Part shown: positions 27,051-56,150 of the stretch, piece after piece | Layout: every line of letters begins with the position of its first letter | Numbering within the stretch: position 1 is the stretch's first letter | DNA from: Thermodesulfobacteriota bacterium | GTDB taxonomy: Bacteria; Desulfobacterota_D; UBA1144; Nemesobacterales; Nemesobacteraceae | DNA: 64,000 bases | Direction: 5' to 3' | Assembly (NCBI GenBank): GCA_965208155.1 | Contig: OZ242322.1 | Coordinates: 100,305-164,304, forward strand | Notes under the pieces: generated by a model | Database searches by the model: none | The model's input: the letters and a program-made list of their open reading frames with translations, nothing else | Told to the model about the DNA's origin: nothing | Translations under genes and position numbers: made by a program

Positions 27051-28262
27051 ATGAAGCGCCTTTATAGTCTCTTGATTCCCTTTGCCGCAACACTGGCGGT
27101 AACAACTTTTTTCTACACAGTTACGGCTTCGGCTCACGGTGAAAACCACGGCAATATCCCTGCAACAACAGCCGAACAGGCAGCCGAAGACAAAGATAAT
27201 CTGGAGACTATCAAAAATTTTGTGCTGCACGCAAAGCACCATTTTGAGGGTATTCCTTCAGACAACCTCGCAGCAAGAGCCGAATTCTACAGGGAGACAA
27301 GAGGTCAAGGAACATGGAATCATGGTTCGGTATACCTGATCATGCTGGCGAGCACATACAGCGTGATTAACCATGGGCTCTATACAGAAACCCTGTTCGG
27401 CGAGTCTCTTGGAAGCCTCGATACTGTAATGAAGCTGAAGACGAAACTGGCAGAAAGCGCCGAGGGTGAAGCTGTCTGTGAACAGTATACATACAACGGT
27501 GTTTCAAGGCAGGCCTGCGCTGTTGGGTATACGGGTATGCTCGGGGGAAGACCACAGATGAACATCCTGATCGGCGGCTTTGATCACGACGAGAAAGACC
27601 AGGACATAGTACGTCTTGATTGCACTGACTACGAACCCGCGGTAACCGCGATGGAAGTGAAGGAAAGACAGACCAGGGAAAGCCTTGAGGATTTTGTAGA
27701 GGGAGCGATCATCAGGTTCGGCGACGTTCTAGAACTTCAGGTGAAGGGCGACTCACCGATGGAAGCCTTCAAAATAGTACAGTGCTTTTCAAAACCGGGA
27801 CATTGGAAAGACGGTCCCATATATCTGTTTGTCATGACCGCAGATACCACTGTGGTTCTAAACGGTCTCAATCAAGAGCTTACAGGCACTCCGTTTGTGG
27901 ATGTTTTTGACGAAGACGGGGTTGATATAGGCAAGGAGATTATTGCTGCCGCGGGAGAGAATGGAGCTGCGGACTTTGTTGAATACAAATGGGACGATCC
28001 GTCTGTAGATGGAGACGAAGTTAACGAGTCCGGCAGGTCTCCAGGCACGTCTCCCAAAATAAGCTACGTTGAGGGAAAGATTTTCCCTCAACGACCGCAA
28101 GTTGTTTACATCTTCGGTTCGGGCATTTACCCGAAAGATGATGACGACGGATGCGCAATTGCGGGGACGGGCAGTGAACCCGGAAGCATTGTTTTCAACA
28201 TGTTCCTGATAATTTTTTCCATGGTTCTCACAGTTTCGCTGGCAAGGCTCCGCAGAAAGTAA
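27051..28262 (+). CDS. Exported tandem Cache-domain protein with C-terminal GCAIAG+TM anchor
   Basis: AGGAGG RBS; signal peptide ASA|H; Cache_2-like WKDGPIYLFV...FVEYKWDDP...KISYV...FGSGIY; paralogues at 40126 and 54939. Confidence 0.75.
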   Translation: MKRLYSLLIPFAATLAVTTFFYTVTASAHGENHGNIPATTAEQAAEDKDNLETIKNFVLHAKHHFEGIPSDNLAARAEFYRETRGQGTWNHGSVYLIMLASTYSVINHGLYTETLFGESLGSLDTVMKLKTKLAESAEGEAVCEQYTYNGVSRQACAVGYTGMLGGRPQMNILIGGFDHDEKDQDIVRLDCTDYEPAVTAMEVKERQTRESLEDFVEGAIIRFGDVLELQVKGDSPMEAFKIVQCFSKPGHWKDGPIYLFVMTADTTVVLNGLNQELTGTPFVDVFDEDGVDIGKEIIAAAGENGAADFVEYKWDDPSVDGDEVNESGRSPGTSPKISYVEGKIFPQRPQVVYIFGSGIYPKDDDDGCAIAGTGSEPGSIVFNMFLIIFSMVLTVSLARLRRK

Positions 28263-28351
28263 CATTTGGATGTCCGCGCGCCGCCCTATTGAGAAAAGTC
28301 AGACAACGCGTGGACGGAACTTAACAGAGACCGGATTTACAAGCCGCGATA

Positions 28352-29632
28352 TCAACTGCCGAACCGCGAAAGTGCTTTTTTTCCTATATCGGTCCGGCAA
28401 ATCAGGCATTGCTCGGAGAGAGAGTCAACAACCCTGTACGCCTTGCTTATCGATTCCTCTATAGTGGCGCCAAAGGATGTAATTCCGAGAACTCTTCCGC
28501 CGCTTGTAACAAGTCTGTCCCCGGAAAAAGCGGTTCCCGCGTGAAAAACGACTGTTTCCGCGGTATCCTCGAAGTCCCTGACTTTTGTAAGCTCAACCCC
28601 CTTGTCGTAACTTCCGGGATAGCCATCTGAAGCCATAACCACGCAGACGCAGAAGCCGTCTTTCCATTGCAGAGAATCAGTATTCATCTCACCCCTGGCT
28701 ATTGAATAAAGAACAGGAACGATATCCGATTCCATTTTCATAAGAAGCGGCTGGGCTTCGGGGTCGCCGAAGCGACAGTTAAATTCAAGTACCTTGAAAC
28801 TGTCATCCTCTATCATAAGTCCGGCGTAGAGAATACCCCTGTAGGTCCTGCCTTCTGATTTCATGGCCCGCACGGTCGGAATCATGACCTCGTCGATTAT
28901 TCTCCGTCTCAGATCATCTGTTACGAGCGGGGCGGGAGCATAAGCGCCCATACCCCCCGTGTTCGGCCCCCTGTCTCCGTCAAATATGGGCTTGTGATCC
29001 TGGGAGGACTCAAGCGGAAGTATGTTCTCACCATCTGTAAAAGCGAAAAAAGAGGTTTCCTCGCCTGTAAGGAATTCTTCTATCACCACTTTAGTTCCCG
29101 CTTGGCCGAACGCTCCGCGCTCCATCATTGAGCGAACCGCGTCCTCTCCTTCTTCGCGCGAGTGGCATATGATAACCCCCTTGCCGGCCGCAAGGCCGTC
29201 GGCTTTTACCACAAAGAGAGTCTCCATCTCCGCTGTCTTCGCAAGCGCCTGCCCCATGTCGGAGAAAACGAAATATTCGCCGGTCGGAATTCCGTATTTT
29301 TTCATCAGGTTTTTTGAGAAAATCTTGCTTCCTTCAAGCTCCGCCGCGGCCTTTGAGGGACCAAAAACGAAAAGATTCTCTTTTTCAAAAAAGTCTGTTA
29401 TCCCTTCGCAAAGAGGCTGCTCGGGACCAACTACTGTAAGATCAACAGACTCTTTTTTCACAAACCGCGCGAGCGAATCAAAATCCGTCACCCCTATATC
29501 AACACATTCGGCGTGACGGCTTATTCCCGCGTTTCCGGGAGCGCAGTAAACACTCTCCACCAGAGGGCTCCGGCTTATTTTCCAGCAGAGGGCATGCTCC
29601 CTCCCCCCGCCTCCTACGACAAGTACTTTCAT
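28352..29632 (-). CDS. purD: Phosphoribosylamine-glycine ligase
   Basis: MKVLVVGGGGREHAL, KADGLAAGKGV, GPNTGGMGAY, EFNCRFGDPE. Confidence 0.97.
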   Translation of the reverse strand: MKVLVVGGGGREHALCWKISRSPLVESVYCAPGNAGISRHAECVDIGVTDFDSLARFVKKESVDLTVVGPEQPLCEGITDFFEKENLFVFGPSKAAAELEGSKIFSKNLMKKYGIPTGEYFVFSDMGQALAKTAEMETLFVVKADGLAAGKGVIICHSREEGEDAVRSMMERGAFGQAGTKVVIEEFLTGEETSFFAFTDGENILPLESSQDHKPIFDGDRGPNTGGMGAYAPAPLVTDDLRRRIIDEVMIPTVRAMKSEGRTYRGILYAGLMIEDDSFKVLEFNCRFGDPEAQPLLMKMESDIVPVLYSIARGEMNTDSLQWKDGFCVCVVMASDGYPGSYDKGVELTKVRDFEDTAETVVFHAGTAFSGDRLVTSGGRVLGITSFGATIEESISKAYRVVDSLSEQCLICRTDIGKKALSRFGS

Positions 29633-32589
29633 TTGGAATCCCCCAGCACCATAGATGGTCTGTTCTGCTGATAGCCCGCATAAAGTATCTGGCATATCAG
29701 GTCCTTGATTGACTGGTTTTCTTCTATTTTCTTGTAGAAATCAAACCTCTCATTTACATAGCCAAGCAGCATGTCATTAAACTGTTTTGCGAAGAAGTTT
29801 CTCTTGTTCTCTTCGCTGTTATCATCATTCATGTACTTTGCCACCTCCGTATCGTCGTTTAACCGCTTGTTTATCCGAGAGATATCAAGTCTGTCTTCCT
29901 CCGTAAGATTACCGCCATGAAGACTGTTCACCTGGGTTATGATTTCTGAGAGCAGGTCAAGTTCCGGTTCGGGCGGGGCGCCTCCTTCAAACTCGGGAGG
30001 GGTGAGGGGTGCATTTACTTTCTCAAGCTCTCCGATACGCTCATGGGTTTTCTGTATTCTGAGCGAGTCAAGATCCACGGTATCGCTTATATCGAACCGT
30101 TGCGATTCGCGTTTCGGGAGTTTTTTGTTCAGGTACTTGAAAAAGACAAACGACTTTTCAAGCTCAATGTCGGAGAAGTTTATTATCTGGGAGAGATATC
30201 CGTACATCCTGATAAATGACTGAACCCTTGAACGAAAATCTTCTCTGGTCTCCACATCCTCAATCCTTCTGAACTGATCAACCACCCTGTCAAGAATTGG
30301 GTGCAAATCTCCTTCATCACGGTTTGGGTTATAAAACACCTCGCAGAAACGATTTACGTCTTCATGTGTATACAGATGGAAATCGTAGATTTCTCTTTGT
30401 GTATCGTAAAGACGGTTGGGGTCGGTCTCGCCTTCAAGCATCGTTGACTGATAGAATGTCTGGAAGGAGTTGCGTATATCCTCGGGGGTGTTAACAAAGT
30501 CAAGCACGAAGGTCTCTGTTTTGCCCGAAGCGATCCTGTTAAGTCTTGAGAGGGTTTGTACGCACTGTACCCCTCCGAGAATCTTGTCGACATACATTGA
30601 CTGGACAAGTGGTTCGTCAAACCCGGTCTGAAACTTGTTCGCGACGACAAGAAGGCGGAATCCCGGGTCCTTCAATCCAAGCGGAATGTCGCCACGGTGA
30701 CCCACAGTCTTGTTAAGTCCGTCTTCTGTGTATTTTTCACCCTCAACGGTCACTTCACCCGAGAATGCGACAAGGGACCTGTAGAAGATTCCCCGCTTCT
30801 CAAGCTGCGCGTTTACTTCCCTGAAGTAAAGCACGCAGTGCGCCCGAGACCTGGTGACGATCATCCCTCTTGCCCGGCCCTGGATCTGCTTCGATCCCTT
30901 CTTGATCCAGTGATCAAGCATGATGTTCACTTTGTAGCGGATTGTCTGCTCGTGGGAATCAACGTATTTTACAAGTTCTTTTTTGCCCTCGGATACGGGA
31001 ATCTCTATCTCGTTATCCTTAGTCTGTTTTATTTTGAAATACCGCCTGTAGGTCGTGTAATTGCAGAGAACATCAAGGGTGAAACCCTCGTTGATTGACT
31101 GGTACATCGAGTAAATGTGAAACGGCATGAACTTTTCATCTCCGGTTCTGGTTCCGAAAAGTTCAAGCGTCTTGTCCTTGGGGGTTCCCGTGAATCCGAA
31201 AAAGGATATGTGTTTCTGCCTTCCGCGGTTTTTTATCTCCTGTCTTATCATCTCCTCGTAGTCAAACTCATCGTCATCGTCTGTTTTCGCAAGAGCTTTC
31301 TTGAGTTCCTTTGAAAGTTCGCCGCTCTGGCTTGAGTGAACCTCGTCAATTATTACGGCGAAGGTTCTGTGACCCAGCGAGGAGATAGTCTCCGAGATAA
31401 ACGGAAACTTCTGGATCGTGGAGATGACTATGTCTTTTCCCTGTTCTAAAAACGCCTTCAACTGCCCCGAATCCTTGTCGGCACCGCCCACGACTCCCGC
31501 GGTCTGCTCAAGTGACCGGACGGTGTTTCTCAGCTGATCGTCAAGAACCTTCCTGTCGGTCACTATGACCACGGTATCGAACAGCCGTTTTTTATCATCC
31601 TCAGAGCGGTAAAGAGATGTAAGGGTGTGGGCAAGCCAGCCGATAGAGTATGACTTGCCGGAACCCGTGGTGTGCTGAACAAGGTAGTTGTGACCGGTTC
31701 CGTCCTCTTTTATCTGGCGACGGAATTTTCTTATGAGATCAAGCTGGTGGTAGCGGGGAAAGACGAGAAACTGCGATGTCTTTGTATCAACTTTTTGTTT
31801 TTTTTCGTTGAAGAAATAACTTTTCCCTTCCGACACATGAACGAAGTTCTCAAGAATGTCGAGAATCGAGTCGGGTGTCAGTATGTCTTCCCAGAGGTAC
31901 TTTGTTCTGTATCCGCTCTCTACCTGCGGATTCTCAAGATCCCGATTGTAGGGAAGGAAGCTGGTATTTTTACCTTCAAGCCTGGTAGTCATCAATACAG
32001 CGTTGTTATCCACACAGAAATGAACGATACAACGCTTGAACCGAAGCAACGGTTCCTTCTTCGGCTCTCTATCGTTTTTGTACTGGTTCTGTGAGTGAAT
32101 GATATTCTGTCCCGTAAGCTGGTTTTTAAGCTCCATTGTTATTAGTGGAAGACCGTTTAGGAAAAGGACCATGTCAATTGAGTTTTCGTTATGGTTTGAA
32201 TAATGAAGTTGCCTTATAACCGTGAACCTGTTCAGGTTATAAAACTTGAGGTGGTCGGGATTGAGTCCACTTTTCGGCTTAAAGAAGCAGAGAGAGAAGT
32301 AGACACCTCTATCGACAACCTGGTTTCTTAGAACATCAATGATTCCTCTTTTTGAGATTTCAGATGAAATACGCGAGAGGATATTGTTCTCAGTGTCAAT
32401 TCCATAGATTTTTTCAAGCTCGCTCCAATTATCCGGCTGCGTGGTCTTTATGAATTCAATCAGATCATCACGGATGAGACAAAGAGAGCGATTGTATTCT
32501 GAGAAGTGGCGAGACTCGTAACCGATTGAGTTTAGATGCTTCTCAATGTGCTCTTCAAACTTCTGCTCTGTGGGTTTCAGTCCGTTCAT
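29629..32589 (-). CDS. hsdR: Type I restriction endonuclease subunit R
   Basis: MELKN nuclease motif, HTTGSGKS, IIDEVHSSQ, FTGTPK, QTGFDEP, QTLSRLNR. Confidence 0.95.
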   Translation of the reverse strand: MNGLKPTEQKFEEHIEKHLNSIGYESRHFSEYNRSLCLIRDDLIEFIKTTQPDNWSELEKIYGIDTENNILSRISSEISKRGIIDVLRNQVVDRGVYFSLCFFKPKSGLNPDHLKFYNLNRFTVIRQLHYSNHNENSIDMVLFLNGLPLITMELKNQLTGQNIIHSQNQYKNDREPKKEPLLRFKRCIVHFCVDNNAVLMTTRLEGKNTSFLPYNRDLENPQVESGYRTKYLWEDILTPDSILDILENFVHVSEGKSYFFNEKKQKVDTKTSQFLVFPRYHQLDLIRKFRRQIKEDGTGHNYLVQHTTGSGKSYSIGWLAHTLTSLYRSEDDKKRLFDTVVIVTDRKVLDDQLRNTVRSLEQTAGVVGGADKDSGQLKAFLEQGKDIVISTIQKFPFISETISSLGHRTFAVIIDEVHSSQSGELSKELKKALAKTDDDDEFDYEEMIRQEIKNRGRQKHISFFGFTGTPKDKTLELFGTRTGDEKFMPFHIYSMYQSINEGFTLDVLCNYTTYRRYFKIKQTKDNEIEIPVSEGKKELVKYVDSHEQTIRYKVNIMLDHWIKKGSKQIQGRARGMIVTRSRAHCVLYFREVNAQLEKRGIFYRSLVAFSGEVTVEGEKYTEDGLNKTVGHRGDIPLGLKDPGFRLLVVANKFQTGFDEPLVQSMYVDKILGGVQCVQTLSRLNRIASGKTETFVLDFVNTPEDIRNSFQTFYQSTMLEGETDPNRLYDTQREIYDFHLYTHEDVNRFCEVFYNPNRDEGDLHPILDRVVDQFRRIEDVETREDFRSRVQSFIRMYGYLSQIINFSDIELEKSFVFFKYLNKKLPKRESQRFDISDTVDLDSLRIQKTHERIGELEKVNAPLTPPEFEGGAPPEPELDLLSEIITQVNSLHGGNLTEEDRLDISRINKRLNDDTEVAKYMNDDNSEENKRNFFAKQFNDMLLGYVNERFDFYKKIEENQSIKDLICQILYAGYQQNRPSMVLGDSK

Positions 32590-33899
32590 ATCATTTCTTC
32601 TGCGATTCTTACTTTGCCGGTAACAACATTTGAGATCAGGGACTGGCGATATTCTTTCAGGAGTTCAATACGCCTGGTTTCTTTTTCAATGAGAGAGTTG
32701 ATCTGTGAAATGTTCCTGTCAAGATAGCAAGAAATTGTGGTTTGTTCATTAAGAGACGGAAGTACAACTGGAAAATTGGAAAGACTGTCAGCAGATAATT
32801 CTAAAAATGTAGTTCCATTAGAAACAGAGTTGAGAGCATCCGTATTTACAAGAAGGTAGTAATATAGAAAATTTACGTCCAGATTCTCACGAACACAAAG
32901 AGACTTGCATCCTTGATTGGTCGCAAAATCTACTTTGGAAATACCAACTTTCCCAACAGGAGCTCTAGTGGAGAGAACAAGTGAATCTGGCTTAACCAAA
33001 TTGCATCCACAACTTTTTAATCCCAATTCGGTAATTTTTCTTGTTGATTGATTAAGATATTTTATCGGTATTAATTCTAAATCAGAAGGTGTATACCAAT
33101 TGATTGATCCATTCCAGTATTTTTCAACTCTAGACTTGGGAGTTGAACCAGAGAAAATCGTCGCAATATACTTCATTGAAATTACCGTCCAATGGCTCGG
33201 AATCTCCCCCATCCACTCAATCCCGCTGTCTTTCATCTCGACATCAAGGTCTAAACCTTTCGTCACGCACTGATTGATCAAAGAGGTTCTCTGTTCTTTT
33301 AAGAGTTCTATTTTTCGGGAGATTTTCTCAATCAGGGAATCAATTTGTGAGGTTTGCTTGTCGAGGTATCGGGAAATGAAGGCTTGTTCTTGGAGCAGTG
33401 GAACCAAGACAGAATATCGACTTAAGAATGAAACTGATATTCCTTCCCTTTTATTATCTCCAACCAATCCTCTTAATGGTTTATACTGTGACTCCAAATA
33501 GTAAAACTGGTACTTTGGATCAATCGAATCTTTGAAAGAGATACCACACAAGGACTGATTACATGTTGTCTTTGTCTGCAAAATCCCTACAGTTCCCTTG
33601 GTCTTTCCCTGCCCATTAAGAGCCACCATAACGGTTCCAACATCAAGGAAGGGTGTACTAGAATTCTTCTGTCCTTTTTCGGTAATTCTTCCATCAATGT
33701 TTTTAATAATTCGTTTGTTTATTTCTCCAGAATTCATCCAAGGTATAGTTCCATTCTCCCAATAACTAGGCTCTCTCCGTGAAGGTGTGGAACCATTTGC
33801 TAGACTCCCATACTGATAAATCTTTCCGATGGACCAATGACTCGGAATCTTCCCAATCCACTCAACCCCGCTGTCTTTGTATTCAGGATATCTATTCAC
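32586..33899 (-). CDS. hsdS: Type I RM specificity subunit S
   Basis: Two TRDs each preceded by KDSG(V/I)EW.G.IPSHW; P...EQ conserved helices. Confidence 0.94.
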   Translation of the reverse strand: MNRYPEYKDSGVEWIGKIPSHWSIGKIYQYGSLANGSTPSRREPSYWENGTIPWMNSGEINKRIIKNIDGRITEKGQKNSSTPFLDVGTVMVALNGQGKTKGTVGILQTKTTCNQSLCGISFKDSIDPKYQFYYLESQYKPLRGLVGDNKREGISVSFLSRYSVLVPLLQEQAFISRYLDKQTSQIDSLIEKISRKIELLKEQRTSLINQCVTKGLDLDVEMKDSGIEWMGEIPSHWTVISMKYIATIFSGSTPKSRVEKYWNGSINWYTPSDLELIPIKYLNQSTRKITELGLKSCGCNLVKPDSLVLSTRAPVGKVGISKVDFATNQGCKSLCVRENLDVNFLYYYLLVNTDALNSVSNGTTFLELSADSLSNFPVVLPSLNEQTTISCYLDRNISQINSLIEKETRRIELLKEYRQSLISNVVTGKVRIAEEMI

Positions 33900-35604: not shown

Positions 35605-35694
35605 AGCTGAAAATTCTTGACCTTAACGCATGGCTTCTGAAGAGATCTAAAATTCCTGCAGTCTTTAGAATTCGCCACTTGGATTTTATGAGCT

Positions 35695-36099
35695 TCAGAC
35701 ATTCTCCAGCTTGATTCCAGCCTTTTCGTATGCTTCCTTTGGAGCTCTGTTTGCATCTAACCACATCTGAATCTCTGTCTTCGAGTATTCACCGAAAAAA
35801 TAATTTTGTTGGACTACGAAAAATCTCTTCTTTTTGTTTGTTCGATAAAGACTCTTTCCGAAATAATTGTGTATGCCCTCTATTCCTATTTTATGAATCA
35901 ATGTGCTCTCCCCGGTGTTGTATTCTTTCCCTCCCCATCTGAAAACCCAATTTCCATTTTCCTCACTTCCAAGTATAGGGCTTTTAGGCCTGAGAACAAC
36001 CTTCTTGGCGTTTCCTCTAATCACCCTCCTTACAGGCTTTACAGATGCAAGGATTGTATCAATGACTTGTAGAATTTTCCAAATCGAACTTATAGTCAC
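35695..36099 (-). CDS. Hypothetical protein (134 aa, AT-rich)
   Basis: ORF with AGAGGA RBS, co-oriented upstream of hsdM; family not recognised. Confidence 0.55.
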   Translation of the reverse strand: MTISSIWKILQVIDTILASVKPVRRVIRGNAKKVVLRPKSPILGSEENGNWVFRWGGKEYNTGESTLIHKIGIEGIHNYFGKSLYRTNKKKRFFVVQQNYFFGEYSKTEIQMWLDANRAPKEAYEKAGIKLENV

Positions 36100-36268
36100 T
36101 CACTTTCCTCTTAACTCACTGTTATAAACGGTATTCTCCCTCAGGAGAGATTCCGAATAGAATTTCTATTTTACCTTACATCGTCAACATCCCTATCTGT
36201 GATATGTAGGGGAATTGTGTTCCGTTTCGGAATTCCACCTAGACCTTGTTTGTTACCAGTAACCAATT

Positions 36269-38144: not shown

Positions 38145-38170
38145 AATTGCGTGGGAGACAATGATACATG

Positions 38171-38684: not shown

Positions 38685-39773
38685 TCAATGCTTCGGCGCT
38701 TCAGGTTTGAAAGTCGAAGCAACCTCTTCCATGCTCCAGTTTAATTCACGCACCGGGAGACCAAGCAATTCCGCGGCCTTCGACTCGGAAATCACCTCTT
38801 CGGCAAGCGCGCGGAACGTGAGGCGTCTGAAGCGCGTTGGCTCCTCACCTGGAAGGGCGCAGGGCTCTTTGCAGGGCGGCGTACGCCATCCCAGGCGGCC
38901 AAACTCATGGAAGAGGCTCTGGAACAGAGACTCACTGAATATGCCGAGATCCTTGCAGCGATAGGTAATTGCCTGAACGCTGGTACCAAAGAGTTGCTTC
39001 AGATAAAACAGTTCTCGACCGCCGATAAATGTACGACGCTTTCCTATCTCACCCCAGAGAGCTTCGGCAGGCATAAGAAAGGCTCCGGCAAAGCGATGCG
39101 CGGCCTTCTCGCTGTCAACCTTGGAAGACTCATCCATGACCATATGACCCAGTTCATGGGCCAGCGTGAAGCGTTGCCTTTCTCCCCAGTCCTCACGGTT
39201 AACAACAATAACAGGAACTGCTTTTCTGTGGGCACAACTAACGCGTGCCGTCAGACCGGATATATTCGTTAAAGCAAGAGAGAGAATCTTGATTCCCTGT
39301 TTCTCAAGAAGCTCGACCAGATTCGGAATCGGATCAGTTCCTAACCCCCAACACTCACGCAGACTGCAGGCCGCGCGGTCAGCCTCTGAGATGTCCTGAA
39401 CAAGAGGATAGGGAGCTTCCCGCGGCCTGTTCCACTCAACACTGCTAAGACTGAGCAACTCCTCAACCACCAGATACCGCTCCAGAAGATGCAGAACCCT
39501 GGCTTCGACGCGGGATTGCTCTCGCCTGCTTGTAATCTTCTTTTTCCTGAATTCGACCGCCTCAAGCACCATCTCCTGATCACCGACCAGGTAGTCCACC
39601 GATACATCCAGAGCATTAGCAAGCGCGATCAGAACACCTGAGCTCGGCATCGATTCGTCACGCTCATATTTCCCGATAGCCTGGGCCGTAACCAGGTTTT
39701 CAATTCTGTTTGCCAATCTCCTGAGAGATAATCCGGATGCGGCACGGGCAATCTTAAGTCTTCGTCCTATCAT
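38685..39773 (-). CDS. XRE HTH fused to ImmA/IrrE-family Zn metallopeptidase
   Basis: N-terminal HTH (RLKIARAASGLSL...AIGKYE); RQRFTLAHELGH; EKAAHRFAGAFLMP. Confidence 0.9.
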   Translation of the reverse strand: MIGRRLKIARAASGLSLRRLANRIENLVTAQAIGKYERDESMPSSGVLIALANALDVSVDYLVGDQEMVLEAVEFRKKKITSRREQSRVEARVLHLLERYLVVEELLSLSSVEWNRPREAPYPLVQDISEADRAACSLRECWGLGTDPIPNLVELLEKQGIKILSLALTNISGLTARVSCAHRKAVPVIVVNREDWGERQRFTLAHELGHMVMDESSKVDSEKAAHRFAGAFLMPAEALWGEIGKRRTFIGGRELFYLKQLFGTSVQAITYRCKDLGIFSESLFQSLFHEFGRLGWRTPPCKEPCALPGEEPTRFRRLTFRALAEEVISESKAAELLGLPVRELNWSMEEVASTFKPEAPKH

Positions 39774-39793
39774 CAAAGCTGACCTCAGCACTT

Positions 39794-39836
39794 GCAGTTT
39801 ACAAACATATATCAGATTTTGGATATTGTAAACTGC
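39794..39836 (-). promoter_or_regulatory. Promoter with perfect 11-bp inverted repeat (putative XRE operator)
   Basis: GCAGTTTACAA-N21-TTGTAAACTGC; minus strand reads TTTACA-N17-TATGTT inside it. Confidence 0.65.
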
Positions 39837-39858
39837 TATGTCAGGAACCTTTAAACTC

Positions 39859-39961
39859 ACCCGACTAAGAAAACCCGAAGAACATCGTCGGCGGAAGCTT
39901 GTATTATATAGAAGAAAGGCTGTTTGTGTTGTTCACAGCCGAAAATTCTTTTTTAAGCATG
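39859..39961 (-). pseudogene. Degenerate copy of the hsdM 5' end and upstream sequence
   Basis: 39879-39950 aligns to 35549-35618 (blocks 17/19 and 36/41 identical); reads GTG-NNTNSLSSI-stop versus MNNMDSLSSL. Confidence 0.8.
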
Positions 39962-40125: not shown

Positions 40126-41382
40126 TTAAATTCGCTCCGCTTTTTTCGACCTGCCTTTCCAAAGAGACAAACAACACATTGAAAATATTATCAAAAACAG
40201 ATTGAATACAGCACTTCGAGAGTTGCCGCCAGACCCAGCAATCGCACATCCGTCGTTACCACTTGTATTATTTTCTTCAAGAGTGCCGTAAATACCGGAA
40301 CCGAAAATCAGAAGGTTCGGAAGCTGAGTGAATTCTACCGCTTCAACATAACTGATCTTCGGCGATCTGCCGGGAGACATACCAGGCACCTGAACATCGT
40401 CCTCTTCTATAAGAGGATTGTCCCACTTGTATTCAACAAAGTCTCCCGCTCCGTCTTCTCCCGCAACTTCAAGGATTTCCCGTCCGATGTCAACTCCATC
40501 TTCGTCAAGAACATTCTCAAAAGAATTGCCGGTTAACTCCGGATTGTTCCCGTTAAAAATCACCGTGGGGGCTCCTTGGGGCGGTTTGATCATGACAAAG
40601 ACGTATACAGGTCCTGAGTTCCACGTGCTTTCGCCGAAACATGCCATCTGGTTAATTACATATTGCGGCAGTGGCAGTTCTCCTGTCGGCGGGTTCTGGG
40701 TCAGCAAATCTCCAACCCTGTCAATCGCCGCTTTTACAAAACCCTTCTGGACTTCTCTGGCGCGCTCCGCACTTACATACTGGCTTGCGATTACATCATC
40801 GGCTGTTACCGCAGGCTCAACTTCCGGACACTCGCGTTTAACTACATGCTGACTATCGTGGTCAAGACCCGCGATCAGGACATTGGGCACTCCCCCGGCG
40901 AGCAGAGGTTTTATTAAAACAGCACAACTCCACTTTGAAGATCCATCCGGGTGAGTGTACTGGGTGCAGACCGGATCCGCATCAACACTTTGTCTGCGAA
41001 GTTTGCCGAGCATTCCTGCTACAACCGGATGGCGGCCCAGCGAAGCTCCATGAAAAGACTTTGTGTCCTTTCCATGATTCCAGATGAAACCGTCTTGGCG
41101 CATTACAATAAGGTAGACAGACCCGTCTATCCAGTCCCCTCCTTCATCCCTCATCTGCCTCAACAGCACCGAAGTCTCACCCGCGCCTTCTGCGGCAGCA
41201 ATATCCATATGATGTTTTGCGTGCAGCACAAAACTCTTCATTGTAGCCTCATCATTTTCCTCGGCCGCCTCCATTGCCGTTGTCTGGGTCTCATGTGCAT
41301 AAGACGAAACAGAAAAAGAAAAACCGATCAGTATCAACATAAGAACCAATACTGCCGTAAAGCTGTTGCCAAAATTCCTCAT
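40126..41382 (-). CDS. Exported tandem Cache-domain protein with C-terminal GCAIAG+TM anchor
   Basis: GGAGGAG RBS; SYA|H signal; FVLHAKHH; FVEYKWDNP...KISYV...FGSGIY. Confidence 0.75.
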   Translation of the reverse strand: MRNFGNSFTAVLVLMLILIGFSFSVSSYAHETQTTAMEAAEENDEATMKSFVLHAKHHMDIAAAEGAGETSVLLRQMRDEGGDWIDGSVYLIVMRQDGFIWNHGKDTKSFHGASLGRHPVVAGMLGKLRRQSVDADPVCTQYTHPDGSSKWSCAVLIKPLLAGGVPNVLIAGLDHDSQHVVKRECPEVEPAVTADDVIASQYVSAERAREVQKGFVKAAIDRVGDLLTQNPPTGELPLPQYVINQMACFGESTWNSGPVYVFVMIKPPQGAPTVIFNGNNPELTGNSFENVLDEDGVDIGREILEVAGEDGAGDFVEYKWDNPLIEEDDVQVPGMSPGRSPKISYVEAVEFTQLPNLLIFGSGIYGTLEENNTSGNDGCAIAGSGGNSRSAVFNLFLIIFSMCCLSLWKGRSKKAERI

Positions 41383-41535
41383 TGGATATCTCCTCCAATA
41401 ATTCCACAGACTGAAATTAGTCTGCGACAATGCACTTCTATATATCCGTCCCGCGGCCTGTTTAAAAATTCAGGTCCTGATTGTGCCCCCAAGAGCGCTT
41501 CGGACCAACCAAGTATTATACCCTCCAGTTTCATG

Positions 41536-46479: not shown

Positions 46480-46483
46480 AGGA

Positions 46484-47219: not shown

Positions 47220-47227
47220 CAGTACCT

Positions 47228-47256
47228 ATAGTAATAAAAAGGCTGGTTGCTGTCAA
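47228..47256 (-). promoter_or_regulatory. Sigma70 promoter, near-leaderless transcript
   Basis: TTGACA-N17-TACTAT ending 8 nt before the ATG at 47219. Confidence 0.6.
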
Positions 47257-47327
47257 TTTGTCGCTCCCTCACCCACGGTTCGGGCAAACACTTACGGATA
47301 AAGAGATTAGTGGAGACACCAGGAAAT

Positions 47328-47918
47328 CTAGCGCTTTGCAAAGCAACCTGAAGTTTTTCCGAAAAATTCATTGAGAATTCTCCCCGTAAGTCCCCATATA
47401 ATGTGATTGCTGTAAGCAAACACGTAGTCATTCACAACCATTCCGTCACGTTCCCTCTCCCTCGTATCCCTGTTTTGAGGGTCAAGCAGGTGAGAGACTG
47501 GAACACGGAAAAATTCTGACACCTCGTAATTGGGAACAAACTCCACTTCCGCGTCTATGATTCCCACAAAAGGCTTGACCGCGTAATGCCTGACAAGCGG
47601 GGTGTAGGGACGCACGAAATCCATTTCCCCGAGAATCTCCACTTCCGCCGCGGCAGAGAAACCAAGTTCTTCTCCCGCTTCCCGAAGTGCCGTATCAGCA
47701 AGGGTTGTGTCGCTTTGCTTTTTCTTCCCGCCCGGAAAAGCGACGTGTCCCGAGAAAACATCTTTTCTGTACTCGGTCCTCCTTATAAACCATATTCCAT
47801 AATCTCCGTCCCGCTCGCAGAGCATTAAAAGTACCGCTGACACGACAAGCCCCCCGCCCGGATCAGTCCGGGTTCCCGGAGGATCAAGAATCCTTTTTAT
47901 TTCTTCCCGAGTGCTCAT
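47328..47918 (-). CDS. Nudix CoA pyrophosphatase
   Basis: SGHVAFPGG..TALREAGEELG, IWGLTGRIL. Confidence 0.88.
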   Translation of the reverse strand: MSTREEIKRILDPPGTRTDPGGGLVVSAVLLMLCERDGDYGIWFIRRTEYRKDVFSGHVAFPGGKKKQSDTTLADTALREAGEELGFSAAAEVEILGEMDFVRPYTPLVRHYAVKPFVGIIDAEVEFVPNYEVSEFFRVPVSHLLDPQNRDTRERERDGMVVNDYVFAYSNHIIWGLTGRILNEFFGKTSGCFAKR

Positions 47919-47935
47919 CGTATCTTCAGGAAAAA

Positions 47936-49882: not shown

Positions 49883-49939
49883 AAAAAGATGTTTACCTCG
49901 CTGTGCGCGGGTTAAAACCGCACGGGGCTACGTGCGCAA

Positions 49940-50152
49940 TCAGTAATTATCTCTATCCTTGGGATATATGACGTTTACCTTTCCTTCGGCTATCTCTCTT
50001 AACGCAGAAACAACATGTTTGTTGTCATCGTTCTCAGAAGCCACTACGGTAGCTCCCTTGGATATCTGGCTTGCTCTTTTCATTGCTGCGATGGAAAGAG
50101 CAAATCTGTTCTCAACTTTCTCTAAACAGTCTTCAATCGTAATTCTGGCCAT
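49940..50152 (-). CDS. rpoZ: RNA polymerase omega subunit
   Basis: [21 protein letters not shown]. Confidence 0.95.
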
Positions 50153-50254
50153 GGATTGTTACCTTCTTTAATCAGTAATTGATTTGCATACTACACCCAA
50201 TATAATTCGACTCTTCGCGGTAATGTCAACTTATTCGAGACTTGATACTCCGTT

Positions 50255-52003
50255 TCACTGAAATGTTCCAGCCTGATTATCGCCACGAACAAGTTCGCGG
50301 TTCTCTTTTCCCGGAAGCACACTGAGCGTCTTTGCTCTTGACGTGAGTTCCCTGAATTCCGGCCGCTTGACGGTATCCACATATATCCACCGCGACTGAG
50401 CCCTCTTCTGAGTAAAGCTCACTATCATATACCCGCGGTCCTTCGTGTTTGAGTAGACAAGACCGTCAACCAGCACTTCCAGATCCCGGGCGAGTTCCTC
50501 GGCCTGCGCCGGTTCAAGTTTAAGATAAGTCTCAAGACCTCCCGAGGACACAGACGCTGTGGCGAACTCAACCCCTACCCGTCTGCCCTCAGCATCCCCA
50601 AGGTTGTTCGCCCACCCGTTATGCGTATCCCCGGCAAGCACCACAAGGTTCTTATCCGCACTGTACGCCGCACCCAGTACCGCTTCCCGTTCCGCAGGGT
50701 AACCGTCCCAGGCATCAAGATTATAGGGAAGCACCGTGTTTATACGGTCCCGTTCACCCTGAATCACGGAAGGATCATCTCGCAGCATCCGCTTCTTAAT
50801 CTCGGTCAGCTCATCAATAAGACCCGCGACCCGCGGCGTGCGTTTACCGAGATCGGGAATTATTTCAGCGGGAATGTTCATTCTGCCCATAAGCACCTGC
50901 TGACCCAGAACCTGCCAGGCGGCAGTTGAATCAGCAAGCTTCCCCTTAAGCCAGACAAGCTGATCCCGACCGAGCAGGGTTCGTTTCGGAGAACCAATAT
51001 CCTCACGAAAACCCCGGGCATGAAAACCGGTATCAGGATCAAAATAATCTTTGTAACTAAGCTGTTTTTCCCGTCCGGCAAGGCGGGTATCGAGCATAAA
51101 AAGTTCAACCAGGTTTCCGAAAGAAAAACTGCGGTAGATCCGTCCGGAATCATTCTCTTCTGCGGGGCGAACCGGCATCCACTCGTAATAGGCCCGAAGC
51201 GCTGCCGCCTTGCGCGCATCGAAACTGCCTTCACCTTCATTATGGTTCTGCGCACCTCCCGCGTAAGCGTCGTTTGCGACCTCATGATCATCCCAGACGG
51301 TGATAAACGGATGCGCGGCGTGAAGAGCCTGAAGCTGCGGGTCGGTTCTGTATAGCGCATAACGACCTCGGTAGTCGTCAAGCGTCAGGATTTCCTGATC
51401 GCTGTAATCCGGAAAGTCCCTGACTGTTCGCCCGGCATTGTCGTTTCCAGAATCAGGCGCCCTTCCGTACTCGTAGATATAATCGCCGAGGTGCACTACG
51501 GCATCGACGTCAGCAGTTTTCGCCGCATGGCCGTAAACGTTAAAGTAACCACCATGAGATGCAGGATAGTTCGCGCATGAAAACACCGCCAGCCTGACTG
51601 AATCCACATCACCTCGGGGCAGGGTCCTGGTACGGCCGATAGCGGATACAGCCTTGCCCGAGCGGAAACGGTAATAGTAAACCGTTCCGGCCAGAAGACC
51701 CTTGACGTCTATCTTGACGGTGTAATCACTCGCGGCCGTGGCGCTCTTAACCGAGTTGTGAACAATGCTTCTGAACTCATCATCCGAAGCGACTTCCACT
51801 TCTACCCTGACTCTTCTCTCTGATTCCCGCGGAGTGACTCTGGTCCAGAGAATAACCCTGTCATCCAGGGGGTCGCCGCTTGCGACTCCATGTTCAAAAC
51901 CCACGTCTCCCGAGCTGCCGTAGAGCGCAAAACCGATAGCAAAAAGCAGAAGGACAAAAAGCAGAACCGCCGAGACATGAAAGAGATTTTTTCTCAAAAA
52001 CAC
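50255..52003 (-). CDS. phoD: Alkaline phosphatase D family
   Basis: [41 protein letters not shown]. Confidence 0.92.
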
Positions 52004-52201
52004 AGATGTATTTTCTCCCCGCCCAAAGCAGTCTTACAGTTATACACCCAAAATCAACAGCGATTAAAGGAAAAGCTGACAGGACGCGGGAGACAGCCGG
52101 GGGGAAGCATAAACATGGCGGTTTCCACACTTCGGCGGTTCTTTGACAACGGAAGCTTTACAATTATTATCTTGACGTACTTTCAGCGGAACGGAAACCT
52201 G

Positions 52202-52861
52202 ATGAATATGGAACTGGAAAAGCTCAAGTTCAGCGACAAAGGCCTTTTGCCCGTGATAGTGCAGGACGCATCAAGCGGGCGGGTGCTTATGCTCGCGTAT
52301 GCGAACAAAGAAGCTCTGGAGATGACCGTCAGGACTGGAAGGACTCACTTCTGGAGCAGGTCAAGAAAAAAGATCTGGAACAAGGGAGAAGAATCAGGCC
52401 ATTTTCAGGACGTAAAGGAAATCTTCGTTGACTGCGACTGCGATACGGTGCTAATAACCGTGGAGCAGACCGGGGCAGCCTGCCACACCGGAGAGCCGAC
52501 ATGCTTTTACAGATCGGGGGACATGGAAGAAAAAGTTGCCCCCGTGTTCGAGGAAGCCTCGCTTAAAAAGGTGTTCTCCGTAATAGAAGACAGGAAACAG
52601 AACCCCAGGGAAGGCTCATACGTAAGCGGCCTTATGAAAGGCGGGATTGACAGGATACTTAAAAAAATCGGAGAGGAAGCCGGCGAAACAATAATAGCCG
52701 CCAAGAACGGGGATAAAGACGAGCTTGTCTACGAACTTACCGATTTGTGGTTCCATTCCATGGTGCTTCTCTGCGAAGCGGGCCTCGACCCTCAGGACAT
52801 ATCAGATGAACTTGAGAGAAGGTTCGGCAGGCGCAAGGAAGAGTACGCGCAGGAAAAGTAA
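52202..52861 (+). CDS. hisIE: Bifunctional phosphoribosyl-AMP cyclohydrolase/PR-ATP pyrophosphatase
   Basis: [34 protein letters not shown]. Confidence 0.95.
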
Positions 52862-52879
52862 CAGCACGGGAAGCGTCTG

Positions 52880-53380
52880 CTACATTTTGCCCTTGGGAGG
52901 CCTGTGCTTTTTAGGCCTGTCCTTCTCCTCTATGTACTCTCCTATGTGAGTTCTACTTCTAACCGAAGGCGGCAGGTTAGAGAGATCGGGCTTAGGCATA
53001 TTGGTTGAGAGGTCTCTGGTAAAAGCGAAAGTCGAGATGACTTTCTCCACTTTCTTTTTCTCCCCGCAGTAGCACTTTACGTTTTTCTCGTCCCCATCTT
53101 CGTATATAAGCTCGGAAAATCTGTAGTTTCGCATGTTAAAAAGCGCAAGCAGGGCTCCGTCCTTAAGATAGAAATCGCTGAATATGGAATCTTTTCCCTT
53201 CCTTCCATGCTTTGCGACTATCTCTTCGCGTTCAAGGTCGATAACTTCTATGGCGTAGATGTTGTCATATTTCTCGACAAGGCCTTTTACGGTCTCCTTG
53301 TCCCGCTTTCTCTCAAGAGCCTTGAGTGATTTCTCAACATTGCCTCTGCACTTGGCACATTCAAATTCATAGAGGGGCAT
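52880..53380 (-). CDS. FmdB-like zinc-ribbon protein with large insertion
   Basis: MPLYEFECAKC ... VKCYCG..VEKVISTF. Confidence 0.65.
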   Translation of the reverse strand: MPLYEFECAKCRGNVEKSLKALERKRDKETVKGLVEKYDNIYAIEVIDLEREEIVAKHGRKGKDSIFSDFYLKDGALLALFNMRNYRFSELIYEDGDEKNVKCYCGEKKKVEKVISTFAFTRDLSTNMPKPDLSNLPPSVRSRTHIGEYIEEKDRPKKHRPPKGKM

Positions 53381-53389
53381 TTGCGTCTC

Positions 53390-53893
53390 CTATCTGTTGA
53401 AATACTGGCCCAGGTGATCCTGCCCGACCCAGTCGCTTGCTATTTCTTCATCCTTTTGCTGTTTGTATTCAAGATGCCATCTAAGCTCATCCCCAGGACC
53501 TGGAGCTCTTTTGCTCTTGTCGTCGAATATAGCCTTGAAGGTGGAAAAAACCCTTCTCACCTCCTCCGAACCGTCGCAAAGAGGACATTTGACTTCCTCC
53601 TGGTCGTCGTCCCCGTACACAAGATGGTTGAAACGGAAATTCTTAAGCTCAAGGTAAAGCACCTTTCCGTTATCCAGCTTGTAACGAAACCTTCTCGCGC
53701 CGCTTATGCCCCTTTCCCCCAGCTCGAAGAAAAATTTTCCGCTCTTGTCGTTTGTGACTTCAATGTAACAGAAATTGCGGTTCTGCTTGAAAACTTTCTT
53801 TGCGTTCGTCTTGGTAAGCTTAGCAACCAGATTGTCTATATCCGTGTTGTAACTCTCCATGCAACTGTCGCATTCATATTCGTATAACGGCAC
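53390..53893 (-). CDS. FmdB-like zinc-ribbon protein with large insertion (paralogue)
   Basis: MPLYEYECDSC ... VKCPLCDG..VRRVFSTF; GGAGG RBS. Confidence 0.68.
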   Translation of the reverse strand: MPLYEYECDSCMESYNTDIDNLVAKLTKTNAKKVFKQNRNFCYIEVTNDKSGKFFFELGERGISGARRFRYKLDNGKVLYLELKNFRFNHLVYGDDDQEEVKCPLCDGSEEVRRVFSTFKAIFDDKSKRAPGPGDELRWHLEYKQQKDEEIASDWVGQDHLGQYFNR

Positions 53894-54015
53894 CTTGCGC
53901 CTCCAGGAAAACTTTTAATCCCGAAGATTATAAACAATATTATCTGAGTTTAAAGCCCGAAACGGCCCAAGCGTCCAAAACATTGCTGAAACAAAGCAGG
54001 TTATGGTTCATAATT

Positions 54016-54675
54016 ATGAAAATGAAAAAAGCCGGGAACCCGAAAACGCCCCGTGGGCAAAACGGAAAAAACAACCTCCCCGCGGGTAAAGATCTGAATT
54101 TCGTCGCCGTTGACGTCGAGACAGCCAATTCAAACGTCTCAAGCATATGCCAAGTGGGAATCGCCGTGGTCAGATCGGCGGAGAGCAAAGACGTATGGAC
54201 GCAGTTTATTGATCCTCATGATTTTTTTGATCCGTACAATATAGCCATACACGGCATAGACCAAAAGATGGTAAGCGGCTGCCCCCGGTTTGAAGAGCTA
54301 TGCGACAAGATCGCGCGACTTCTGGGAGAAATCGTCGTAAGCCATACATTTTTTGACCGCAGGGCAATCTCAAAAGCGTTTGAGGAATGTGGAAAACCTC
54401 TTCGTTACGGAATCTGGATTGACAGCGCACAGGTAGCGCGACGCGCCTGGCCGGATAAATACGCCCTCAGGGGTTACAATCTCGGGAATATTGCCCGCGA
54501 TCTTGGAATCCGCTTTCGCCACCACGACGCCGGAGAAGACGCAAGAGTTGCAGCTGAAATTGTTATAAGGGCATACGCGGATACCGCATTCGGAATAACC
54601 GGGCTGCTGGACCTGGGGACCGGAGCAAAACACTGCAAGTCCCAGCCAGAAACTGAATCGAAACCACCCGGATAA
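54016..54675 (+). CDS. DEDDh 3'-5' exonuclease (DNA Pol III epsilon-like)
   Basis: VAVDVETAN, IHGI, SHTFFD, HHDAGEDA. Confidence 0.87.
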   Translation: MKMKKAGNPKTPRGQNGKNNLPAGKDLNFVAVDVETANSNVSSICQVGIAVVRSAESKDVWTQFIDPHDFFDPYNIAIHGIDQKMVSGCPRFEELCDKIARLLGEIVVSHTFFDRRAISKAFEECGKPLRYGIWIDSAQVARRAWPDKYALRGYNLGNIARDLGIRFRHHDAGEDARVAAEIVIRAYADTAFGITGLLDLGTGAKHCKSQPETESKPPG

Positions 54676-54797
54676 GCCCACTGATTGTGGAAGGATTTTC
54701 GGAGAACATTGCCATCTGAGTGGATCCGCTTTGCCTTAATCCTGTATTAAGGGCTATCTTCTTAAATCTATTTGAAAACCCCTGCCTTCAACAGAGA

Positions 54798-54842
54798 GTG
54801 CGGTCAAAAAGTCTTGACTGCACGCGGAGTTCTTAATATTCT
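54798..54842 (+). promoter_or_regulatory. Promoter with inverted repeat over the -35 box
   Basis: GTGCGGTCAA-N6-TTGACTGCAC; TTGACT-N17-TATTCT. Confidence 0.45.
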
Positions 54843-54938
54843 CGAAATTGAAAACCTTAGAGAAAACCGATAAATTTGCTATGACTGTTTAGTTCATCTG
54901 CAGGAGCTACCACAAAGACCACGCTAGAAGGCAATATT

Positions 54939-56150
54939 TTGAAAATCTCGGCATTAAAAGCAGTTTTTATTTGTGTACTGACATTTATATGCGTTTTTTT
55001 CTATATGCATTCAGCCTCGGCCCACGGCAAGCACGCAAACGACAGTAAAGAAACCGTGACAGCCAGCAAAGCAGGGAACAGCCGAAGCGCCATGCAAGAA
55101 TTTGTACTGCACGCAAAAGCGCACTGGGAAGTTCCGGTTCCTCGTGAACAAAGCCTTGATCTCTGGCAGCAGATACTGGGAGAAGTGCAAGAGGGAGGGG
55201 ACTGGAGGTCCGGTTCCAGCTACCTCATTCTAGTTGACAAACAAGGCAGATCCATAGCTCACGGATATTATGAATCAGCCCACGGCCACGACATAACCGT
55301 CTGGCGGGACGCAAGAGGAACCGACGTAGTGCAAGAACTCATCAAGGTTGCTCAAGCCAATGAGCGGGGAGGTTTTGTTGATTATTACTGGGATGACCCC
55401 GATGATCCCTCGGACAACAGCACCTCGCCCAAGTCAGCCTACGCAGTTAATTACACAGTCCGCGCGTTGGGGATTGAACTCGTCCTGATCGGGGGCCTTC
55501 ATCACGAGGAAGTGATCCCATCCATGCTTGAAGTCTTCAAAGAATACGTGCCCGAAGTGAAGGCAAGCACCGTAAGAGATCCCGACACTTTGAAGAATTT
55601 CGTGGAAAAAGCGACTGAATTTGTTAATCACGTATATGAGACTACGCAGGGCAATATGGACATCACAAACCTGCTGACAGTAAGCAACAGAGATGAAACC
55701 TGGAAACACAATGAAATCTACCTTTTCGCCATGACCAAGCAAGGTCTTGTAGTGTTCAATGGCAACGATCCGGATCTCGTTAAAACACTCGCTTTTAATC
55801 CTATGAACGTAATAGACGAAAACGAGTTTGAAATTGGGAAAGAAATGGTCAAGACAGCAGAGAAAGGAGGAGGCTTTGTCTACTATTTATGGGACAATCC
55901 GTTGGTTGAGGGAGACGAAATCAACGAGGTAGGCAGGGCAAAGGGAACTTCATTCAAGGTAGGATATGTAAAGCAAGTAACACTCGGCGATGACACCTAT
56001 ATTCTCGGTTCCGGCTTTTATCCTGAGGAAGGAGAGAAGTACCTAACCAGATTCAGAGAGGAAGGTAGAGTTACACGTGGAATCATTACCGTATGTCTGA
56101 TTCTACTTTTCGTATTAGGGGCAGTCTGGTGGAAACTGCGCAAGCGGTAA
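54939..56150 (+). CDS. Exported tandem Cache-domain protein with C-terminal TM anchor
   Basis: ASA|H signal; FVLHAKAH; two GGFV.Y.WD.P Cache_2-like repeats; TM + KLRKR. Confidence 0.78.
   Translation: MKISALKAVFICVLTFICVFFYMHSASAHGKHANDSKETVTASKAGNSRSAMQEFVLHAKAHWEVPVPREQSLDLWQQILGEVQEGGDWRSGSSYLILVDKQGRSIAHGYYESAHGHDITVWRDARGTDVVQELIKVAQANERGGFVDYYWDDPDDPSDNSTSPKSAYAVNYTVRALGIELVLIGGLHHEEVIPSMLEVFKEYVPEVKASTVRDPDTLKNFVEKATEFVNHVYETTQGNMDITNLLTVSNRDETWKHNEIYLFAMTKQGLVVFNGNDPDLVKTLAFNPMNVIDENEFEIGKEMVKTAEKGGGFVYYLWDNPLVEGDEINEVGRAKGTSFKVGYVKQVTLGDDTYILGSGFYPEEGEKYLTRFREEGRVTRGIITVCLILLFVLGAVWWKLRKR

Follow-up and report, generated by a model that had tools for sequence, protein, structure and literature searches.

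A lineage-specific family of secreted sCache_2 proteins in a Thermodesulfobacteriota bacterium, most with a cysteine-containing tail akin to MYXO-CTERM sorting signals

Cache proteins that carry no signalling output raise the question of what they bind and where in the cell envelope they are placed. Here, we analyzed a stretch of 64,000 nucleotides (the window) from a Thermodesulfobacteriota bacterium (GenBank assembly GCA_965208155.1, contig OZ242322.1, positions 100,305 to 164,304), in which three genes, called A, B and C below, encode such proteins. The genome is a single contig of 2,441,076 bases; positions in it are given with the prefix C1, and all other positions are those of the window. 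It is likely, in our judgement, that A, B and C are members of an expanded sCache_2 family, secreted and specific to this lineage, whose proteins would bind small ligands and have no output, and that most members, including A and B, carry a Cys-containing tripartite sorting signal handled by a MYXO-CTERM-like pathway. The window proteins are probably lipid-anchored on the cell surface by means of an uncatalogued relative of the MYXO-CTERM system. By analogy with that system, they would be exported through Sec and then retained in the inner membrane by the tail helix; the invariant Cys of the tail would be lipidated, for which an extra Lgt paralogue is a candidate enzyme, and the helix would be removed by the only myxosortase-like CPBP protease of the genome.

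Architecture of the window proteins

An earlier note, made from the letters of the window, had described three paralogous genes. All three open reading frames (ORFs) were confirmed at the positions it had given, and they are paralogues over a full-length alignment, B and C being 47% and 33% identical to A, respectively. Their parts are as follows.

27051..28262, + strand: gene A (P0001), 403 amino acids (aa); signal peptide, two sCache_2 modules and predicted Cys-type sorting tail, from the ORF and its translation
27051..27134, + strand: signal peptide of gene A, residues 1-28 (...TASA / HG), assigned by eye; AlphaFold2 places a helix at residues 2-27 with low predicted local distance difference test (pLDDT) scores
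27135..27242, + strand: mature N-terminus (H29, H33) and H60-x3-H64 helix (FVLHAKHH) of gene A, from column counts and joint loss
27171..27578, + strand: Cache module 1 of gene A, about residues 41-176, with Y95, H108 and a C143-C156 hairpin, from modelled secondary structure and column counts
27648..28130, + strand: Cache module 2 of gene A, about residues 200-360, with Y258, F260, N271, Y312, W314 and K336, from a profile alignment to 4k08, 2qhk and 5g4y and column counts
28137..28259, + strand: tail of gene A, DDDDGCAIAG, spacer, helix beginning FNMFLIIF and RLRRK; E 5.4e-16 with the tail model
40126..41382, - strand: gene B (P0002), 418 aa, architecture as in gene A; the longest ORF begins at 41430
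40129..40266, - strand: tail of gene B, TSGNDGCAIAG, spacer, helix beginning FNLFLIIF and KGRSKK; E 2.6e-18 with the tail model
54939..56150, + strand: gene C (P0003), 403 aa with a TTG start; two canonical sCache_2 modules and a plain C-terminal transmembrane anchor
56079..56147, + strand: hydrophobic helix of gene C followed by KLRKR, assigned by eye

The motifs listed by the earlier note could be read in the translations. A signal peptide ends in an AxA motif followed by His in all three (ASA/HG, SYA/HE and ASA/HG in A, B and C). The cleavage site was predicted from the -3/-1 rule, and among the 97 aligned relatives on which our residue counts are based, Ala occupies position -3 in 80 and position -1 in 90. 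The FVLHAK(H/A)H motif is also present (FVLHAKHH in A and B, FVLHAKAH in C), as is the WD.P...K loop. The last element of each protein is a single hydrophobic helix that has a basic end. A Cache-type sensor would have a cytoplasmic output after a second transmembrane helix; the window proteins stop 5-12 residues past their helix. DGCAIAG precedes the helix in A and B, two of the three genes. Gene C has no Cys motif and was missed by the tail model, and the same kind of end was found in its relatives P0088 and P0167; its product is probably anchored in the inner membrane by the plain helix.

A Cache family without output domains

The Cache assignment, also made in the earlier note, was confirmed by domain models and structure comparison. 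Both dCache_2 (PF08269) and sCache_2 (PF17200) exceeded their Pfam gathering cut-offs in A, B and C, with 41 and 31.6 bits, respectively, in gene A and 81.9 bits for sCache_2, over two stretches, in gene C. The AlphaFold2 model of gene A, built with the 97 relatives, had a mean pLDDT of 89.7 and a predicted template modelling score of 0.80, and shows two helix-plus-sheet modules flanked by an N-terminal and a C-terminal helix, in agreement with the Cache fold, which has helices at the N-terminus and a sheet of five strands. Its best solved structures in Foldseek were the sCache_2 sensor domains 4k08, 2qhk/4exo and 5g4y (TM-scores of 0.71-0.76 on the target), followed by TlpB. Only generic Cache clusters were returned by the ESM Atlas, and the best NCBIfam matches of the window proteins were the sensor proteins MctS and CtpM, far under their cut-offs.

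Three genes turned out to understate the family. When a profile of the three proteins was run against the 17,205 six-frame ORFs of the genome, 14 ORFs were found, comprising 13 family members and a 92-aa C-terminal fragment (E 6e-4); the family thus has at least 13 members genome-wide. One-module members have 231 and 253 aa, two-module members about 400-500 aa and a four-module member 846 aa, and two family ORFs (210 and 220 aa) are N-terminally short. The 846-aa member (L010, C1:806959-809499) consists of two two-module units fused head-to-tail, and relatives of it with 830-910 aa recur in the genus, often as tandem arrays. At E <= 1e-10, with up to 15 candidates scored per genome, the family profile was found in 32 of the 35 other species of the window's genus and in 1 of 84 genomes of the phylum outside the genus, with 2-17 matches per genome. 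Relatives came from metagenome-assembled genomes labelled Candidatus Dadabacteria or Thermodesulfobacteriota, and more distant ones from Latescibacterota, Gemmatimonadetes and Acidobacteria.

In PscD, a carboxylate is held by Tyr90, His103, Tyr143 and Lys156, between Trp92 and Trp145 (PMC5062169). A profile alignment of module 2 of gene A to 4k08 and 2qhk gave the following correspondence, with counts over the relatives.

PscD Tyr90: module 2 Y258, 97/97
PscD Trp92: module 2 F260, 97/97
PscD His103: module 2 N271, 94/97
PscD Tyr143: module 2 Y312, 97/97
PscD Trp145: module 2 W314, 94/97
PscD Lys156: module 2 K336, 97/97

Thus, Y258, Y312 and K336 align with the carboxylate-binding Tyr, Tyr and Lys of PscD/Adeh_3718. 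In module 1, Y95 is kept in 91 relatives and H108 in all 97, a second pocket Tyr was found in 67, and C143 and C156 are each present in 90. Judged from these alignments, the ligand would most likely be a small molecule bearing a carboxylate. Two elements singled out by the earlier note lose their special status here: the His of its (N/A)HG motif is H108, which by the alignment and the PscD description (PMC5062169) is the ordinary sCache_2 pocket His, and the WD..K loop corresponds to the usual hairpin between beta3 and beta4 in the sCache_2 pocket, here with an acidic insert of about 11 residues.

The family shares its fold with the sCache_2 carboxylate sensors (the PscD sensor domain 5G4Y, Adeh_3718 4K08 and the Vibrio chemoreceptor 2QHK/4EXO), and keeps the Tyr, Tyr and Lys of the binding tetrad in module 2 of gene A and the Tyr and His in module 1. 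However, those domains are chemoreceptor inputs, whereas the window proteins have no output. Further differences are the tandem arrangement of two modules (one, two or four in paralogues), four conserved Cys, the acidic beta3-beta4 insert and a His-rich N-terminal feature.

Absence of output domains, as proposed in the earlier note, also holds for the relatives examined. A word-indexed search yielded 133 near-length relatives, and precomputed Pfam annotation for the 120 that were listed contained only Cache domains; the one named source was a 'cache domain-containing protein' of Candidatus Dadabacteria. No signalling output was found in the precomputed Pfam annotation of 29 longer relatives, several of which carry an autotransporter beta-domain. 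An exhaustive HMMER pass over 1.84 billion representatives gave 410 proteins at E <= 0.001 (199 at E <= 1e-10). We scanned 41 of the best 150 with Pfam, namely all 38 new ones of at least 500 aa and three others, and these 41 contained no kinase, methyl-accepting chemotaxis protein (MCP), cyclase or HAMP domain.

What the relatives do carry is a range of other anchors. An autotransporter domain was above cut-off in P0151, P0152, P0213 and P0250, and the Por_Secre_tail domain of the type IX secretion system (T9SS) in P0230, P0258 and P0262. FlgD_ig, fn3, leucine-rich repeat (LRR), He_PIG and PKD were other partner domains, and P0216 is a lipoprotein with 13 sCache_2 stretches. Of 121 near-length relatives, 109 have the Cys tail at E < 1e-5, as do 11 of the 29 longer proteins and 80 of the 133 new representatives. 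In the close relatives P0040, P0041 and P0050, which are without it, the signal peptide instead ends with a lipobox-like Cys; the P0115 group has a twin-arginine translocation motif and a canonical lipobox. The same passenger thus occurs with a C-terminal Cys tail, with a lipid at its N-terminus, with a barrel in the outer membrane or with a T9SS domain. This speaks more strongly than any other observation for display of these Cache proteins as opposed to signalling, and argues for a surface-display passenger role of this Cache clade. A clade that is output-free in all detectable relatives and rides on autotransporters, T9SS domains, lipoboxes and Cys tails suggests that Cache can have a display or binding role and not that of a sensor input alone. 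It should be noted that the autotransporter and T9SS passengers and surface lipoproteins are more distant homologs, and the window genes themselves lack these anchors. The distant relative P0237 has a Pro-rich motif near its C-terminus, followed by a hydrophobic helix and RRRLR; the arrangement resembles a PEP-CTERM-type signal, which would add another kind of anchor.

A cysteine-type tail on unrelated proteins

A tail hidden Markov model (HMM) was built from 19 tails, all with Cys, and searched against the last 70 residues of the 17,205 ORFs. It retrieved 22 ORFs at E <= 2.9e-9, the next match being at 0.0093, and the three ORFs not used in building it also show the Cys. In the consensus, G-C-[AS]-[IVL]-[AS] is followed by roughly ten residues that are small or polar, then by a helix starting FNL[FL]L, and finally by Arg/Lys. 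Thirteen of the 22 ORFs belong to the Cache family (12 of the 13 members, gene C being the exception, and the 92-aa fragment). The other nine are not Cache proteins: one has a Calx-beta domain, two have LRRs, three are large proteins with Spondin_N and LRRs (with or without immunoglobulin-like (Ig) repeats), and three, including a 115-aa fragment, have no Pfam match. The suggestion of the earlier note that the Cys tail resembles a sorting signal is supported by this genome-wide use on unrelated cargo. Cys368 of the tail (gene A numbering) is kept in 90 of the 97 relatives, and the spacer in front of the helix varies.

No described sorting model matched the tail above its cut-off. When six tails were scanned alone against NCBIfam at E values up to 10, no sorting-signal model matched the tails of genes A and B; the sole match of the gene A tail was an unrelated hypothetical-protein model under its cut-off. 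In the Pfam scan of the tails, nothing was above cut-off.

The three large tail proteins (L004, C1:485700-489806; L003, C1:1797113-1800334; L005, C1:1836263-1840288) have 1073-1368 aa with Spondin_N, LRR and Ig repeats; Spondin_N is an animal matrix-type domain. Because the same tail occurs on LRR and Spondin_N proteins, the proteins sorted by it probably determine which surface the cell presents to a host or to particles.

Candidate processing enzymes

A candidate for the dedicated sorting enzyme that the earlier note had anticipated could be identified. The CPBP/Rce1-like family PF02517 has a single match in the genome, a 201-aa ORF (C1:1602973-1603578) scoring 67.1 bits against a cut-off of 22.4. 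EExxxR, FxxxH and HxxxN motifs are readable in its sequence, which we take to be the catalytic motifs of CPBP/Rce1-like proteases. Its four best NCBIfam matches are myxosortase models, MrtP (76.1 bits, cut-off 250), Mrt_core NF040914 (72.2, cut-off 100), MrtS (62.5, cut-off 130) and MrtC (57.2, cut-off 195), and other CPBP families were far behind. Other sorting systems were considered and rejected: for an exosortase/PEP-CTERM system, no PF09721 match was found in the genome, and for a rhombosortase system, the single rhomboid scored 14.2 bits against the TIGR03902 cut-off of 84.

The distribution of protease and tails was examined in 120 genomes of the phylum, including that of the window (G000). 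The protease was found in 85 genomes with one full-length match each (G099 has an additional 29-residue fragment), and tails were found in 67. Sixty-five of the 67 tail-positive genomes have the protease, and only 2 of 35 protease-negative genomes have tails (G047, 90% complete, and G091, 77% complete). Families f5, f6 and f9 have neither (0/1, 0/6 and 0/19, respectively). In the window's genus, tails were present in all 35 other species, with 1 to 33 matches each. Three genomes of this genus, G062, G059 and G065, have a divergent protease (54-62% identical), with 1, 6 and 5 tails, respectively, and no match to the Cache family at 1e-10; G062 also has a single Lgt.

The envelope machinery includes a type II secretion system (T2SS) operon (C1:583740-593340) with GspC, D, E, F, G, three pseudopilins and K, as well as two Omp85 and two Lgt matches. 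At least two Lgt (PF01790) matches were present in 83 of the 85 protease-positive genomes. The 35 protease-negative genomes had one match in 27 cases, none in one and two in seven, those seven being 74-92% complete. In a tree of 40 Lgt rows from 23 genomes, clade A (22 rows, support 100/99) holds the sole copy of all seven single-copy genomes sampled, and clade B (15 rows, support 92/91) contains 14 rows from protease-positive genomes and one from G023; set aside were L128 (aberrant), L129 (outside both clades) and L134 (sister to A). In the window's genome, Lgt-A (C1:472552-473310) lies beside Lnt, and Lgt-B (C1:1696079-1696834) beside an SPFH protein and TrkAH. Clade A thus appears as the universal copy, and clade B goes together with the myxosortase-like protease in the genomes of the phylum, a pattern which is a lead and not a finding because genome reduction confounds it. 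No synteny of protease, Lgt-B and cargo was seen in the window's genome. According to Guo et al. (2025), the enzyme that lipidates the MYXO-CTERM Cys is unidentified and Lgt is the leading candidate (PMC11980579). An Lgt paralogue that tracks the protease provides a concrete gene candidate for this role.

In addition, three of the six TonB-dependent receptor genes (C1:1052562-1053830, 944676-945899 and 792666-794096) have a tail-bearing gene no more than 6 kb away (permutation p = 0.03). Such receptors as partners of the tail proteins are a lead only, because the distance threshold was set after the data had been seen.

Alternative explanations

Several observations weigh against the reading of genes A and B as members of a MYXO-CTERM-like sorting system with a carboxylate-binding cargo. 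The protease is under every Mrt cut-off, so its myxosortase membership is by rank and not by threshold, and its gene does not adjoin any cargo gene. MYXO-CTERM (TIGR03901.2) reached 18.1 bits, under its cut-off of 20, in one of the six tails scanned and did not match the other five, and JDVT-CTERM (NF033191) reached at most 13.4 bits against a cut-off of 27. Twenty of the 85 protease-positive genomes are tail-free with a tail model that was built from one genome; the need for lineage-specific tail models is described in section 13 of Haft (10.1101/2023.06.07.544157). As the genomes are kin, protease and tails can be counted as jointly absent only about three times independently, and two of these cases concern small genomes. 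As to the ligand, the fourth pocket residue of module 2 is Asn and not His, and the carboxylate assignment was obtained solely from a profile alignment.

The tail might instead be a mere membrane anchor inherited within one gene family and never processed, and its similarity could indeed be partly inherited, as 13 of the 22 tail ORFs are Cache paralogues. We regard this as very improbable: the remaining nine have unrelated domains or none, the Cys persists in the relatives despite a variable spacer, tail-free relatives have another lipid or surface anchor in its place, and tails and CPBP protease co-occur. Only slightly less improbable is that the proteins act as periplasmic co-sensors, whose uncleaved helix would stay in the inner membrane and which would report bound ligand, by contacts in the membrane or periplasm, to a separate protein such as a kinase. 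In favour of this, Cache domains commonly serve as inputs of sensors, a plain anchor is found in gene C and its relatives, and MctS and CtpM, although far under cut-off, are the best NCBIfam matches. However, MCP signalling domains are missing from the genome, and its HATPase_c matches, which need not all be kinases, number only 7, fewer than the Cache proteins (at least 13); no signalling gene adjoins any of the three window genes. Moreover, the tail is common to LRR, Spondin_N and Calx-beta proteins, and the autotransporter, T9SS and lipobox anchors of the relatives place these proteins on or in the outer membrane. The trans-acting signalling partner envisaged by the earlier note is therefore unlikely.

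A third alternative, compatible with surface sorting, is that the family is primarily metal-binding, with the [H/D]-G-x-H N-terminus and the H60-x3-H64 helix forming a metal site and the Cache pocket being secondary. Among the relatives, H33 is kept in 78, H60 in 89, H64 in 87 and H179 in 94, and position 29 is His or Asp in 81. His lies within the first two residues past AxA in 10 of the 11 full-length paralogues, directly in nine and as Thr-His in one, and residues 31-40 of the gene A model have a mean pLDDT of 80. Across 106 rows, N-terminal His/Asp motif and H60 are both present in 94 and both absent in 9, H60 occurs without the motif in 3, and the motif never occurs without H60. The nine double losses fall into at least five groups and include both lipobox forms, whose N-terminus is not free. 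Since the N-terminal His/Asp and H60 are lost together, a joint site of mature N-terminus and HxxxH helix is plausible, but the rows are related and the count overstates the independence of the losses. In a His-brace of the LPMO or CopC type, an invariant His is the first residue of the mature protein, and the amino-terminal Cu/Ni motif needs His at mature position 3. The former was ruled out because position 29 is not invariant (His in 44, Asp in 37, other or gap in 16), and the latter was rejected, the conserved His being at mature position 4. The mature His1 highlighted by the earlier note is thus not a conserved His-brace, with Asp instead in the five closest orthologues, and H108 belongs to the ordinary pocket. 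On balance, a primarily metal-binding role is possible but rather doubtful.

Retaining the reading of a surface-sorted Cache family, we put forward two linked claims, which are tentative and, taken together, unlikely to hold in full. One is that the whole sCache_2 clade has left signal transduction and now would act on the cell surface as a module for binding, either to capture nutrients or to attach to a host, that uses at least five export routes in different phyla and, in this lineage, has acquired a metal-type site formed by the free N-terminus and the HxxxH helix. The other is that the MYXO-CTERM-type Cys may be lipidated in this phylum by a dedicated second Lgt paralogue, clade B, which occurs where the myxosortase-like protease occurs and is missing where the protease is missing.

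Relation to known sorting systems

The closest system is MYXO-CTERM with MrtX, MrtC and MrtP, whose signal is likewise tripartite, with an invariant Cys ahead of a hydrophobic helix and basic residues at the end. Many unrelated secreted cargo proteins per genome, a CPBP-family intramembrane protease as the best candidate enzyme and the presence of a T2SS are further similarities. In the part of Guo et al. describing the working model for Myxococcus, Sec export is followed by Cys lipidation by an Lgt-like enzyme, MrtX cleavage and T2SS-dependent surface display (PMC11980579). According to Haft, MYXO-CTERM is found in Myxococcota or Bradymonadales, and GCGC is frequent in the signal (10.1101/2023.06.07.544157). 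The myxosortases are known from the same two groups, and a few further groups have relatives of the system. In contrast, the present signal comes from another phylum, has a single Cys in G-C-[AS]-[IVL]-A and an almost constant Asn where its helix starts (FNLFL), and has the Cache family as its dominant cargo; the protease is short, and both it and the signal are under the model cut-offs. Thus, the system appears to work like MYXO-CTERM/myxosortase, but neither its signal nor its enzyme reaches the respective threshold, and its signature, phylum and cargo are different.

JDVT-CTERM (NF033191) with MrtJ also has a single Cys, and its cognate enzyme belongs to the same protease family. However, section 13 of Haft reports a near-invariant DP ahead of the helix (10.1101/2023.06.07.544157), which is missing from the tails aligned here, and JDVT-CTERM is described as a two-gene unit of an enzyme and one target, compared with 22 dispersed targets here. 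GlyGly-CTERM with rhombosortase is likewise a tripartite C-terminal signal, found on T2SS-dependent surface proteins, but here there is no rhombosortase and the signature has Cys and not Gly-Gly.

In the publications searched, neither this Cache family nor the tail signal has been described in Dadabacteria. Dadabacteria and Cache are not mentioned in the available text of either myxosortase paper (Haft; Guo et al.), whose supplementary tables may list further species. New in the present analysis are the distribution of tails and protease over the phylum, the other anchors used by relatives, the pocket mapping, the joint loss of His residues and the Lgt-B lead. An abundant Cys-type sorting variant in an uncultured phylum with small genomes would widen the range of the system beyond the known groups, and current HMMs miss both signal and enzyme in this phylum.

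Additional features

Two short ORFs, C1:196341-196688 (L009) and C1:2340776-2341229, contain only a tail or the C-terminus of the Cache family and are probably gene remnants. One in-frame stop was observed in several tail or family matches of the relatives. A look-up of sequencing runs gave no RNA run for the window; it gave three runs of one study, two of which contain the whole stretch. Finally, the window gene adjoining gene B (38685-39860, - strand) reads as a helix-turn-helix region at the N-terminus and, after it, an HExxH-type motif (AHELGH); its product, judged by eye, looks like a regulator fused to a metallopeptidase.

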